A stretch of DNA of 64,000 nucleotides from a virus (lineage: Duplodnaviria; Heunggongvirae; Uroviricota; Caudoviricetes). A program made the position numbers. The DNA lies in IMG/VR virus record IMGVR_UViG_2939521961_000011. One strand, 5' to 3'. Of the stretch, positions 43,101 to 49,100 are shown piece after piece; position 1 is the first letter of the stretch, and each line of letters begins with the position of its first letter.

Positions 43101-46100
43101 AACCCGCCCCCAGATCCACTGCGCACATGTCAAATCCTCCCGGGTTCCCCACTGGCGTTTTTTCACGCTGAACACAACTGCATCAGGATGGCGGGTTAAA
43201 AACGCCTGTTCAGCCGTCAACTCGTCCGGTTGCGAAGCGTCCGGACAAGAGAGTTTTTTATTCTCTGTTGTATTCTCTGTTGTATTCTCTGTAGGATCAT
43301 CGGGCCATTTTGACCTGATGACATTGGGCCGTTTTGAACCAATGGAACGTTTCATTTTGACCTCTTCCATCGTGTCATTTTGACCTGATGGAGTGGCGCA
43401 TTTTGACCCGATGGATTCGTTCACTTTGCCATCATCTAAAAGCGCGCTATCGTAGTTAATTGTGTAAAAATTAGTCATATCACGCTTCGATTTATTGAGC
43501 TTTTCGCTACGCAAAAGCCCCAGCGCTTTCAGACTTGCAAACGCACGCTTTAACGTTGACTCTGACCAGAACGGAAACTGTTCCAGCCATTGTTCCGTTG
43601 TGTTGTAAATCCAGCGAACGCCATCACATTCCATGCCGGAACTGGTATCCCTCAACCAGTAATGCAGTTGCTGCAACACAATGGCTTCGTTTAAACCAAT
43701 CTTCATCGCCAGCTGTGTGTTTATAACCAGCGGGCGTTCAGCAAAAAGAAGGCTCATAATTCCATCCGGCTTTTTGTTGGTACTGGTGACGATAGGCACG
43801 CTTGAAAGCGATTGCTTTTTCTATAAGCTCGTCTGTCTCACGTTCCACAACAGCTGGATCTGCAAAAAGCAGCCCGGACTCCACCACATCGCCATATTCT
43901 TTGTTTAACCCGGCAATCATGTACGTAATGCTTTTTCCGTCAGTAATTTCGCGGTACAACCTGAAATCACTAATCCGGATAGCCTCCATAATTGCCGGAA
44001 TCAGCGCCGTGAATTTTTCACGCTTATCCCTGGTGTCGATAGCCTTCCAGCGTTCGAATATCTTCACCCGGTTAACGCCCAGTGCCCGTTGATCAACCTC
44101 GCCATCATTAAACGTGATGCGTTGAACATCGATGTTCGGGCGTTCTTTCAGAGCCCAGAATGCTTCCGTGATTAATATCGTCGCCTGTTCCTGTGTCATT
44201 CCTGGTCGGCACACCCAGGCATCCAGAGCCTCACAAACCTGTTCAGGGGTGATTTTCATTGTTCAACCGCCCCGCCCGCTTTGCCTTACGATATTCGTCA
44301 TAAACTTTGGGGTCGTACTGAAGTTCCCCGCCGGATGCCTCTTGCAGGCGCATCGCGCGACCTTCAGGTACTAGCTCCCCTTTCCAGCTATAAAGCGAAG
44401 CCAAACGAATACCAGCAGCTTGTGCAAGTTTTGTTTTTGAACCGAAATACAAAAGTGCGTCAGTTTTAAGCATTTAAAGCACCTTGATTGTTAGCCATGA
44501 CTAACAAAATAGATGTTAACAAAAACATAGTCAATAAGATTTAGCATTAGCTAACTATGGATACAAAAAATTTAACCATTGGCGAACGCATTAGATATCG
44601 CCGAAAAAACCTCAAATACACCCAAAGGTCTCTTGCTAAAGTCCTGAAAATTTCTCACGTATCGGTTTCACAATGGGAGCGGGATGATAGCGAACCTACA
44701 GGAAAGAATCTTTTTGCCCTCAGCAAAGTACTGCAGTGCTCGCCAACATGGATTCTATTTGGCGATGAAGACAAGCAGCCATCACCACCTATTGAGGAGC
44801 CAGTTGCTCTATCCCCCAAAGAACATGAGCTCCTTGAGCTTTTTAATGCATTGCCTGAATCAGAACAGGATGCTCAGCTCACCGAGATGCGCGCCCGAGT
44901 AAAAAATTTCAACAAACTCTTTGAAGAGTTATTAAAAGCCCGTCAACGAACAAACAAAAGATAACGCAATCAATGCGTTATCTTTTTGGTTGCCCAAAAT
45001 GTTAGTCATGGCAAACAAAAATACTTGACCAAATTGTTAGTCATGGCTAATCTTGCTTGCATCAAGACACCGCACGGTGTTCTCAGCAAACAGTTCCGCT
45101 ACCCCGGCGTTAAGGGGAAATGAGGTCAACATGGATACGCTCAATCTTGGCAACAACGAATCTCTGGTATGCGGAGTATTCTCCAACCTGGACGGCACGT
45201 TTACCGCGATGACGTATACCAGAAGCAAAACGTTTAAAACTGAAGCTGGCGCGCGTCGCTGGTTAGCCAGAAACACTGACTGATGAGGTTGACGATGGAA
45301 TTTAAAGATTTACCTCCTTCAATCCAGGAGATTGCAGCACACACACTTCGTCATCGTCTGAACGAACTTGAATTGGAATCGGTAACGAAAAAAGACACTG
45401 ATAATATGGCTCGTAATGTGCGCGATGCGTTTACCGGATTGTATTTCTGTGCGTCTATAAATAAACACGACTCAGAGAGTGTGGCAAATAAAATTGCAGA
45501 AACGACAGCGCAAAACATCAATACGAAACCAACGGAAGAAGAAATTGATCAGTTTGCTCATGATGCTGGTTTAAAAAACAAGAAAGAAAAATCGCCATAT
45601 GCGGGGAACATGTTTGTTTATGACAATCTCATCAGAATTCGTGGCGAAATTCCGGCGGAATACCTGGCAAGAGTCCATCAGGCATTGCTTAAAAATTTGG
45701 AAACAGAATTATTTGATGGCAACACTAACGGTTTCTTCATGGTATCAGGCCTTGAGAAAGACTGGGATGCAGAAAAACGCTGGAATGTTGCTACATGGTT
45801 ATTCAGTAACAGAGCCGCTGCACTGGAAGCTTCGGCATGTATTTGCGGCCTGTTCTTAACAGACCACAAATATAATCTGGATGTGTACAGTTATATTTAC
45901 GCTGAACACGGTCCACTCTGGATTGACTGGTAATTATAAGGAAACACCAGCAGGGCCGCGGCGACCAACAGAACGATTAAAATCAATAATGCCATTATAA
46001 AGGACATTATTTAATTTATCGTCGAATGCTGATTCTGTGAGCCTCAACTCTGAATGAGTTTTTAATAACCCTGATTGCCTGAGTTGATTTACCAGGCATT

Positions 46101-49100
46101 CAATCTGTTTTTCAATAAGCGGATTTCTTTTTTTGTTTGGCATTTTATCCTCCATTGAGGTTCTGGGTTAAAAATGGAGACCAACACGCTGTCACGTGTG
46201 GTCGTGCGCCGGACACGGATAAGAATCCGGTACTGACAGTTTACTGAAAGGATATTTCCCTGAAAAGTCAGTGCATAACGCGAAAGCGTACGGCGAAGCT
46301 CTTTCCCTTAGAAGGCTTGTCGTTAGATTTCTTCGAACGTGCGCTTCCGGTTGTGGCACTCCGCGAAATGGCGCGGCGGTAAGTATGGCGGGGTTATTCC
46401 TTCCCCATTGAGGACACCGGGTTGTCAGGTTGACCATACGCTTAAGTGACAACCCCGCTGCAACGCCCTCTGTTATCAATTTTCTGGTGACGTTTGGCGG
46501 TATCAGTTTTACTCCGTGGCTGCTCTGCCGCCCTTTTTAAAGTGAATTTTGTGATGCGGTGAATGCGGCTAAGCGCACGCGGAACAGTTAAAACCAAAAA
46601 CAGTGTTATGGGTGGATTCTCTGTATCCGGCGTTAATTGTTAACTGGTTAACGTCACCTGGAGGCACCAGGCACTGCATCACAAAATTCATTGTTGAGGA
46701 CGCGATAATGGAAACGTTATTACCAAACGTTAATACGTCTGAAGGTTGTTTTGATATTGGTGTTCTGCTCAGTAACCGGGAGTTTACTGAAGATGCCATT
46801 AACATGAGGAAATATGAGCCTTATCTGCTCAATGATAATTCCATACTTTCCCGAATTGCTCTTCTTGAACTTGGTATTTTCGGAGAACGTCAATGACTTC
46901 AGCATTTGCACTGATGATGACGGTTTTTCTTATAACGGGTGAATCACAGAATGTGATTACCGGAATTTATGCCAGTAAAGAATCCTGCCTCCAGGCAAGA
47001 GACGAGCAAAAAATTTCTGGTGAATGCCTCCCGGTAAAAAAAGTATCGCTGTACCTGAATAACGAAACACCGGCTGGATAACCCTCCAGCCATATTAACA
47101 CCATACCAACGGATTAAAAATGCCAGCAATGGCAGGGATTTGTTCACCCTTAAATCTGTAATGAGGTTTATCAATGAGCACTGATAAAGAAGAATTTGCG
47201 CTATATTGCGAAGCAAAAAATGACAAAGTCAGAAAACGTCTGGGAATTAAAGGTGGTTTTTACTGGACTACAGCAAAAAAATTATCTGTTGCCATCTCCC
47301 GCTGCATTACCGCAATGGATGACAACGATTATGATGAAGACGACTTTAAAAAACCCGTTCGCGTCCATTTACCCGTTGTGAATGACCTTCCACCTGAAGG
47401 CGTGTTTGATACCGAATTCTGCAACCGATACGAAAAAGGCGGGGAAGATGGCATTACAATGGTATTTATCGCGCCCTCTCCCTCCGTGCAGGAGAAACCA
47501 GCCAGTACTGACAATACCAACGTCAACGGCGAAGACATGACGGAGATTGAGGAGAATATGCTCCTGCCGGTTTCTGGTCAGGAGCTGCCCATTCGCTGGC
47601 TTGCGCAACACGGCAGCGAAAAACCAGTAACGCACGTTGCACGGGAAGAACTTCAGGCATTACATATAGCACGGGCGGAAGAACTGCCGGCTGTTACTGC
47701 CCTGGCCATTTCTCACAAAACAAAGCTGCTCGACCCGCTGGAGATTCGCGACCTTCACAAACTGGTACGCGACACTGACAAAGTTTTCCCTAATCCCGGT
47801 AATTCAGACCTGGGACTGATAACTGCTTTTTTCGAGGCATACCTGGACGCTGACTACACTGATCGGGGTCTGCTGACAAAAGAGTGGATGAAAGGAAATC
47901 GTGTTTCGCGTATCACCCGTACGGCTTCCGGTGCAAATGCCGGTGGCGGGAACAAAACCGATCGCAATCCGAATTTAGTACACACCTTCGATACGCTGGA
48001 TGTGGAGATTGCAGCAGCCACACTTCCGATGGATTTTAATATTTATGAAATTCCGGGCAGCGTTTATCGTCGCGCAAAAGAAATCGTCCTGAAAAGAGAA
48101 AGTCCGTTCAAAGAATGGTCCGCAGCACTTCGCGCAACCCCGGGTATTCTGGACTATTCCCGCGCCGCTATTTTTGCACTTATCCGGAGCGCTCACCCTG
48201 AGTTTTATCACTACCCGGGACGCCTTCAGGGGTATATCAACGCCTACTTAACGGAGACTGATCACGAGAACCCCAGCAAGGAAACTCTCACTGCTGCACG
48301 ACATACACCGGAAAAAGATATCCTGGAAGAAGTTAACCGCGAACTGTCTGCTAAGCAGGAAACAGAAGAAGAAGAAAATGATGAAGAAAAACCGCAACCA
48401 TCTTGCGCAATGGCAGATGAACAGGCAACGGCTGAAACAGTGGAACCGGATGCAACTGAACATCATCAGGACACGCAGCCGCTGGATGCTCAGTCACAGG
48501 TAAATTCTGTTGATGCGAAATATCAGAAACTGCGGGCAGAACTCCATGAAGCCCGGAAAAACATTCCGCCCCCAAACCCTGTCGATGCAGACAAATTACT
48601 GGCTGCCTCTCGCGGAGAATTTGTTGAAGGGATTAGCGACCCGAATGATCCGAAATGGATTAAGGGGATCCAGACCCGCGATTCTGTGTACCAGAACCAG
48701 CAAGAAACGGAACAGAACGACCAGAAAGCGGAACAAAACAGCCCAAATGCGTTACAAAACGAGCCAGAAACGAAACAGCCTGAACCAGTGGCGCAACAGG
48801 AAGTGGAAAAAGTCTGCACCGCCTGCGGTCAGACCGGCGGCGGCAACTGCCCTGATTGTGGCGCTGTGATGGGCGACGCAACATACCAGGAAACATTCGA
48901 TGACAAGAACCTGGTTGAAGTTCAGGAAGACGATTCGGAGAAAATGGAAGGCGCTGAACATCCACACAAGGAGAATGCTGGCAGCGCTCAGGACCACGCC
49001 AGCGATAGTGAAACTGGCGAGACGGCAGATCCCTTAATTACGGTGAACGGTCATCACGTTATCACATCCACCAGCAGGACGTGTGACCATCTAATGATCG

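Follow-up and report, generated by a model that had tools for sequence, protein, structure and literature searches.

A gene that lies antisense to lytic genes is typically an accessory locus (PMC7067206). The sieB gene of phage P22 is under antisense RNA control and is countered by Esc (PMC12197685), and the sieB system includes an escape function for the resident phage (PMC12197685, PMC7067206). In phage lambda, sieB (34482-35036, plus strand) abuts N (35037-35438, minus strand) with zero gap. In the Rac prophage of Escherichia coli K-12 (locus L211, 2906-3812), the DUF1391 gene ydaF, a homologue of ydfA, and an antisense sieB, which converges on ydaF and overlaps it, are followed by the small RNA (sRNA) KilS and the division inhibitor kilR. 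Here, we analyze a related layout in a 64,000-nucleotide stretch of DNA from a virus of the class Caudoviricetes (IMG/VR record IMGVR_UViG_2939521961_000011), referred to as the window. In its dicBF operon, a 212-codon open reading frame (ORF), ORF212, and a convergent 69-codon ORF, ORF69, stand where the K-12 prophage Qin has ydfB and ydfC. Comparison across prophages indicates that the true unit here is the C-terminal domain of ORF212, which we call C212, together with ORF69 as a co-inherited convergent pair. The parts of the cassette are as follows.

45275-46202: variable cassette of the dicBF operon, standing in for K-12 ydfB/ydfC and about 60 bp more, delimited by blastn against K-12 Qin.
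45295-45933, plus strand: ORF212 (phrog_2151; "Ybl81" in some sources), which comes second in the dicB operon repressed by DicA, 212 amino acids, WP_000394548.1.
45295-45579, plus strand: N-terminal helical module and linker of ORF212 (MEFKDLP...), mosaic.
45580-45933, plus strand: C212, the C-terminal alpha/beta domain of ORF212, residues 96-212, the constant partner of ORF69.
45934-46143, minus strand: ORF69 (phrog_4274), a helical hairpin whose disordered C-terminal tail, RRGxPAGVxL, is conserved, 69 amino acids, WP_001133037.1.

The order in the window is a DUF1391 gene, ORF212, the antisense gene, an sRNA, and a division inhibitor. As the order is that of Rac and the geometry that of lambda and Rac, ORF69 occupies the sieB slot, and the Rac and dicBF layouts suggest a shared ancestral organization. 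Like sieB in lambda, P22, and Rac, ORF69 is an antisense gene in an early-left operon, placed tail-to-tail with the first or second operon gene, and the operon transcript covers it as antisense RNA. The proteins themselves differ. There is no sequence or family kinship between them, ORF69 being a soluble protein of 69 amino acids without a predicted membrane segment, compared with about 160-190 amino acids for SieB. Furthermore, the proposed escape partner of ORF69 would be a separate protein domain encoded on the sense strand, whereas in the sieB system it is an internal translation product.

Compared with the dicBF operon of K-12 Qin (ydfA-ydfB-ydfC-dicF-dicB-ydfD), the window has dicA/dicC, ydfA, DicF, dicB, and ydfD in the same order; it differs where Qin has ydfB and ydfC, a place taken here by ORF212 and by ORF69 on the opposite strand, together with the translation-initiation region of ORF69. 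In blastn searches, homology to K-12 Qin fell into two blocks, 44201-45274 (88%) and 46203-46812 (93%), with none between, and therefore 928 bp of the window (45275-46202) stand in for the 450 bp of K-12 that hold ydfB and ydfC. The translations of K-12 ydfB and ydfC showed no relation to ORF212 or ORF69. We conclude from this alignment that 45275-46202 is a cassette replacement of ydfB/ydfC and not an insertion. A first-pass annotation of the window had proposed an insert within the dic operon; its view that the arrangement departs from K-12 stands, whereas the insertion does not. Its description of the genes was accurate. A 212-codon AT-rich ORF without K-12 homology (GC 41%, as opposed to 52% for the window) lies where ydfB/ydfC are expected, with a GAGG Shine-Dalgarno (SD) sequence, and it is followed tail-to-tail by the 69-codon minus-strand ORF, the two stops abutting as TAA and TTA at 45931-45936. 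The SD sequence of ORF69 is GGAGG, 5 nt ahead of its ATG.

The cassette is a common minority allele and no peculiarity of one strain. Of 5426 complete E. coli genomes, 573 (about 10%) contain 80% or more of 45200-46560, and 2311 have the K-12 ydfB/ydfC form. The cassette is not rare. The comparison with K-12 Qin that the first-pass annotation had suggested gave the ydfB/ydfC form there and no cassette form. The 76 bases spanning the ORF69 start occur in 681 genomes, many of them O26, O157, O145, O111, and O103. The stretch in the window is 100% identical to E. coli O26:H11 11368, in which PGAP labels both coding sequences "hypothetical protein."

The linkage between ORF69 and C212 is strict. 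In all 77 close loci (74 from IMG/VR prophages and three from Salmonella), the tail-to-tail neighbor of ORF69 encodes C212. In one of the Salmonella loci (L003), the N-terminal module is deleted in frame, leaving an ORF that consists of C212 only beside ORF69. A profile search recovered remote ORF69 homologues (41-56% identity), all of which converge on a gene ending in a C212 homologue (about 30% identity), the convergent genes overlapping by 11-53 nt. These remote C212 homologues follow another N-terminal domain, accompanied in some of them by an inserted HTH_3, and C212 is found behind three N-terminal architectures, one of them being none at all. The remote pairs reside in prophages of Salmonella and in locus L080 that have Cox-type switches and C4/IsrK RNAs and lack DicF. 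Their presence in other prophage types indicates that the ORF69/C212 pair moves between backbones as a unit.

The N-terminal module of ORF212 (residues 1 to about 60, predicted to be helical) behaves differently from C212. Matches to phrog_1363, phrog_9419, phrog_6937, and phrog_33007 are confined to residues 1-50/75, and about 45 cluster representatives resemble ORF212 over residues 1-55/90 only, with different C-termini; early genes of Stx2a phages share residues 1-86. The homologue alignment contains two allele types of this module, which is 53-100% identical among loci having the same C212. A profile search of 1.84 billion representatives returned just two remote relatives of C212, all remaining matches belonging to the N-terminal module. 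Homologues of ORF212 (n = 153) are almost all from Escherichia, and those of ORF69 are confined to Escherichia and Salmonella.

We compared both genes with divergent E. coli alleles and with the Salmonella copy. The ratio of nonsynonymous to synonymous substitution rates (dN/dS) was 0.17-0.20 for ORF69 codons 1-57 and 0.16-0.22 for ORF212 codons 96-212; the mosaic N-terminal 95 codons of ORF212 gave 0.4-0.8. Values of about 0.2 show that ORF69 and ORF212 are real genes under purifying selection and no chance ORFs. The RRGxPAGVxL motif in the tail of ORF69 is kept down to 41% identity. An AlphaFold2 model of ORF69, with a mean predicted local distance difference test score (pLDDT) of 82, has helices at residues 8-24 and 37-60 that form a two-helix hairpin, followed by the disordered tail. 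Codons 3-6 of ORF69 contain a run of seven A residues (46126-46132), which is shortened to six in 8 of the 74 IMG/VR loci (L055-L062), cutting ORF69 to 17 amino acids. This change could reflect slippage, phase variation, or a homopolymer sequencing error in old drafts.

Neither protein belongs to a recognizable family, as the first-pass annotation had noted for ORF212. The only specific matches were to two PHROGs of unknown function, phrog_2151 for ORF212 (1.8e-147) and phrog_4274 for ORF69 (1.2e-51). Searches of Pfam, NCBIfam, and PADLOC-DB 2.0 (the last at E values up to 1) gave no match to either protein, Pfam gave none to ORF69 and 13 of its relatives, and PDB sequence searches with both proteins gave nothing below E 0.28. 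A Foldseek search of ORF69 against the PDB found no structural neighbor. Two scans of genome contig collections found nothing, and a literature search for both accessions, "ybl81," or the PHROG identifiers found no paper. C212 is a ferredoxin-like domain. Weak fold matches of C212 in BFVD (YsxB/"cysteine protease" and SUI1) were rejected because Cys and His are not conserved: the Prp/YsxB-like match was weak (Foldseek E 7e-3, TM score 0.28), and the alignment of C212 relatives holds no invariant Cys or His for the Cys-His catalytic dyad of Prp/YsxB. A resemblance to SUKH/SMI1-like proteins (FDGNTNG motif) was unsupported by any search and was dropped.

Upstream of ORF69, on the minus strand, we identified a conserved leader and a promoter-like site.

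46150-46179, minus strand: H0, in which the anti-SD sequence CTCCATT (46179-46173) pairs with the SD region of ORF69, AATGGAG (46156-46150).
46179-46203, minus strand: H1, hairpin GACCACACG-TGACAG-CGTGTTGGTC.
46209-46230, minus strand: H2, hairpin CCGGAT-N10-GTCCGG, then CGCAC, nearly invariant.
46238-46266, minus strand: promoter-like site with -35 TTTTCA (46266-46261), 17 nt, and -10 TAAACT (46243-46238), 7 nt before H2.

Across 14 leaders, taken from different cassettes and genera, both arms of H0 and the stem of H2 never vary, while their loops do. About 8 of 13 sequences form H0 in their minimum-free-energy fold. Two observations favor the minus strand: H2 includes a U-G pair that is possible on this strand only, and the leader is more stable as minus-strand than as plus-strand RNA in 12 of 13 sequences. 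H1 shows compensatory changes (CACG:CGTG to CATG:CATG), with a register shift in Salmonella; in the remote loci it is swapped for an unrelated hairpin, TCCCAAC...GTTGGGA, at the same place, itself with a compensatory A-T to G-C swap in locus L081. Upstream of Rac sieB, the H2/H1/H0 leader was not found. Among otherwise collinear loci, H1 also occurs in two forms, one allele (loop TGACAG) being the exact reverse complement of the other (loop CTGTCA), which looks like the inversion of a quasi-palindrome.

In 12 upstream contexts, some of them related to each other, a -10-like box, in many cases extended by a TG, lies 6-8 nt ahead of H2, with a -35 box at a distance of 16-18 nt. Their mean promoter-like score was 8.17, as opposed to 5.75 +/- 0.32 in shuffled sequences, and none of 2000 shuffles reached it. 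From this comparison we predict an ORF69 promoter with a start near 46231. No terminator-like site was found between or just after the two genes, the next one on the minus strand being at 44986-44956. There, directly 3' of dicA, lies a perfect hairpin with a 13-bp stem (AAAAGATAACGCA-TTGAT-TGCGTTATCTTTT, 44956-44986) and T runs on both sides, likely a bidirectional terminator and the first one met by a minus-strand transcript from ORF69. Inspection by eye revealed no LexA-box-like site upstream of ORF69, and the idea of an SOS-controlled anti-repressor was dropped for that reason. K-12 Qin itself (locus L002, about 3560-3660, corresponding to window 46150-46270) has the promoter-like box and H2 but neither an SD sequence nor a small ORF, and where H1 would lie it has another hairpin. 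Because K-12 keeps the promoter-like box and H2, an antisense transcript into ydfC/ydfB/ydfA may exist in K-12 as well.

The leader is shared far beyond ORF69. In IMG/VR prophages, the same 18 nt, TCAATGGAGGATAAAATG, comprising the SD sequence and the start codon, precede at least six unrelated families of small ORFs of 61-80 amino acids, two of them zinc-ribbon-like, with the same approximately 100 nt upstream. Several of these small ORFs converge on MEFKDLP-type genes with other C-termini. The Salmonella locus L003 (5200-6630; Salmonella enterica, a Gifsy-1-like prophage with IsrK and C4 RNAs) carries two cassettes in tandem, the C212-only ORF with ORF69 and then a 119-amino acid MELKDLP gene with a 64-amino acid antisense ORF (phrog_4987), and the 95-bp leader is duplicated there. 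These comparisons show that the early-left (dicB, pL-like) operon of Qin-type and related enterobacterial prophages contains a polymorphic accessory slot, of which 45275-46202 is one allele. Cassettes would be exchanged by recombination between the conserved flanks, namely the coding module of the MEFKDLP N-terminus and the leader of the small ORFs.

Our best guess is that ORF69 and C212 function as an exclusion or toxin-antidote-like pair. ORF69 would have its own promoter (start near 46231) and a leader of about 88 nt, with two hairpins and an anti-SD hairpin that gates translation. With its own promoter and leader, ORF69 would not depend on the operon for its expression and would most likely be made in the lysogen, which is what one expects of a gene that opposes lytic genes and lies where lambda and Rac have sieB. 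In the lysogen it would act as an effector in exclusion, abortive infection, or another conversion function. C212, made only when the DicA-repressed operon fires, would be the cognate early-lytic partner; it would bind ORF69, probably via the RRGxPAGVxL tail, and neutralize or redirect it upon induction of the resident prophage. Because there is no terminator between the genes, operon transcription would run antisense through ORF69 and add silencing at the RNA level. Such a logic would resemble the precedent of SieB/Esc/sas (PMC12197685). We assign a probability of roughly 40% to this reading, in which ORF69 is a lysogen-made effector expressed from its own promoter and gated by H0, C212 binds and neutralizes or redirects it, and antisense silencing is added.

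Several observations weigh against it. ORF69 is small, soluble by prediction, and without obvious effector chemistry, and conserved catalytic residues were not found in the alignment of C212 relatives. Neither protein showed homology to SieB or to any toxin, antitoxin, or defense family, and fold searches of both gave no informative match. Among the sequenced free phages of INPHARED, neither C212 nor ORF69 was found. The promoter-like site of ORF69 is weak by consensus (8/12), and a generic promoter scan gave no usable ORF69 site and fewer sites than in shuffles. The adjacency of ORF69 and C212 within a cassette could partly reflect linkage, and which partner is the effector is a guess.

It is possible, if rather doubtful, that both are ordinary early or accessory phage proteins, such as host takeover proteins or modulators of the lysis-lysogeny decision, with no tie to exclusion or to a toxin and antidote, ORF69 perhaps being a small regulator or anti-repressor-like protein. 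Early-left operons are rich in small proteins to which no function is assigned, some of the remote C212 proteins contain HTH_3 and are placed after Cox, where a CII-like regulator would stand, and small anti-repressors such as Rem occur in Qin (PMC10448788). However, the pair is found with unrelated repressors (DicA-type and a 113-amino acid helix-turn-helix protein with Cox), and it is therefore not tied to one immunity system; by eye, no LexA-box-like site is apparent in the leader. Such a role would also leave the strict pairing and the convergent layout, kept over deep divergence, to be explained.

The minus-strand unit might instead act mainly as RNA, an alternative that we consider unlikely. 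A constitutive antisense transcript, beginning at the conserved promoter and extending through ORF212, ydfA, and dicBp, would then hold down any leakage from the toxic dicBF operon, whether by interfering with its transcription or by forming duplexes, and the small ORFs would be interchangeable passengers. K-12 lacks the small ORF and yet keeps H2, the promoter-like box, and some hairpin where H1 would lie, which fits this idea, as do the placement of one leader ahead of unrelated ORFs and the first minus-strand terminator coming only at 44986-44956; moreover, the operon is toxic and controlled in several layers (PMC10448788). An RNA-only role does not, however, account for a dN/dS of about 0.2 in the core of ORF69 or for a C-terminal motif kept at 41% identity. 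The conservation of the SD sequence, start codon, and anti-SD sequence points to control of translation, and ORF69 co-varies with a protein domain, not with the type of operon.

We regard a type I toxin as very improbable. An alternative-frame hydrophobic ORF of 36 amino acids (MSFIMALLILIVLLVAAALLVFPYNYQSIQSGPCSA, 45897-46007, minus strand) overlaps the 3' ends of ORF69 and ORF212, and in this scenario its peptide would be the toxin, silenced by the sense RNA of the operon. In every allele from E. coli and Salmonella, this frame stays open and hydrophobic. A pyrimidine closes 18 of the last 19 sense codons of ORF69, so that T or C falls at the second codon position in the overlapping frame. 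The hydrophobic ORF has no SD sequence, though, the position of its start varies between alleles, and its hydrophobic core shows L to S and L to T changes; furthermore, it is missing from the remote homologues, in which the RRGxPAGVxL tail encoded in the ORF69 frame is kept. That the cassette is decaying, functionless prophage DNA is hardly credible: many of the host prophages are defective and the A7 to A6 frameshift truncates ORF69 in some loci, but both genes are under purifying selection, the ORFs are intact across Escherichia and Salmonella with the cassette present in about 10% of complete E. coli genomes, and the leader is conserved with compensatory changes.

Returning to the proposal of a lysogen-side effector with a cognate neutralizing domain, its likeness to other two-component systems is partial. 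As in type II toxin-antitoxin (TA) modules, two small genes are strictly co-inherited on a mobile element, and ORF69, like many antitoxins, is small and helical with a disordered conserved tail. Unlike the genes of such modules, ORF69 and ORF212 are convergent and thus not co-transcribed, and ORF69 lacks a DNA-binding domain. The first-pass annotation had suggested an undescribed accessory, defense, or TA-like module at this site. The coupling of the pair and its position at an exclusion-gene site agree with that suggestion, whereas the co-transcription of a type II TA system fails and PADLOC gave no match.

Polymorphic toxin/immunity systems of the contact-dependent inhibition (CDI) and Rhs types likewise combine a conserved N-terminal coding region and a variable C-terminus with a cognate small neighbor, which changes along with the C-terminus, and flanks suited to exchange. 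Here, by contrast, the proteins are small and cytoplasmic, with no secretion or delivery component and no recognizable toxin domain, and the small gene is antisense with its own leader. Prophage moron loci such as rexAB and bstA share the mosaic site near the repressor, a gene opposed to the lytic genes, and an own predicted promoter (PMC7067206); the locus in the window differs from them in its convergent two-gene layout with one partner inside a repressed operon. We raise as a speculative and improbable extension that this slot and its Cox/C4-type equivalents host an undescribed class of polymorphic two-component prophage systems. Each would combine a small lysogen effector, made from a conserved promoter and a leader that sequesters the SD sequence, with a convergent cognate neutralizing domain in the repressed early operon, and many exchangeable specificities, among them ORF69/C212, would provide exclusion or abortive infection with self-immunity for the resident prophage.

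If functional as proposed, the pair would represent a new and very compact kind of prophage accessory or exclusion module, and it would provide a rule for finding more of them, namely to collect the small antisense ORFs that follow the conserved leader at the sieB position. Shiga-toxin-producing E. coli (O26, O157, O145, O111, and O103) commonly carry the cassette. Its host operon already governs cell division (through DicB and DicF) as well as phage receptor function, and the cassette could therefore affect how susceptible these pathogens are to phages, the induction of their prophages, or the dosage of DicF and DicB. On a minimal reading, a conserved antisense promoter and leader that persist in K-12 would be of practical use for annotating dicBF loci.

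The cassette is embedded in the following genes and RNAs.

44243-44473, minus strand: dicC, immunity region, Qin-like.
44557-44964, plus strand: dicA, immunity region, Qin-like.
45131-45283, plus strand: ydfA (DUF1391), first operon gene, Pfam PF07151, 2.6e-28.
46204-46481, plus strand: canonical dicF leader, the long untranslated region of the dicBF mRNA, 93% identical to K-12.
46482-46533, plus strand: DicF sRNA, Rfam RF00039, 75 bits, E 7.9e-16.
46708-46896, plus strand: dicB, Pfam PF05358, 6.4e-37.
46893-47081, plus strand: ydfD-like DUF1482 gene, recognized by Pfam.

Pfam and Rfam matches and 88-93% identity to K-12 bear out the earlier identification of dicC/dicA, ydfA, DicF, dicB, and ydfD in canonical order. 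At the DNA level, dicC through ydfA are 88% identical to K-12 and the dicF leader through dicB 93%, and the dicBp region is homologous too. The ydfD gene is in the same position as in K-12, yet just 41 bp of it are alike, at about 80%, and it was recognized through the DUF1482 match.

In K-12, a long untranslated leader gives rise to a 190-nt DicF species through RNase III and a 53-nt species through RNase E (PMC10448788; PMC5069750). The first-pass annotation had also pointed to a structured noncoding stretch ahead of DicF. We found that this stretch is indeed structured, with a z-score of -3.0 for the plus-strand fold, and that its inverted repeat GCGGGGTT/AACCCCGC is present. From 46203 on, however, it is 93% identical to the K-12 leader, and the structure is therefore real but ordinary. 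Finally, the intergenic region between DicF and dicB (46531-46740, plus strand) resembles the Salmonella sRNA family STnc100 (RF02076), with a score of 34.7 bits that lies below the gathering score of 47 bits (E 5.8e-5).

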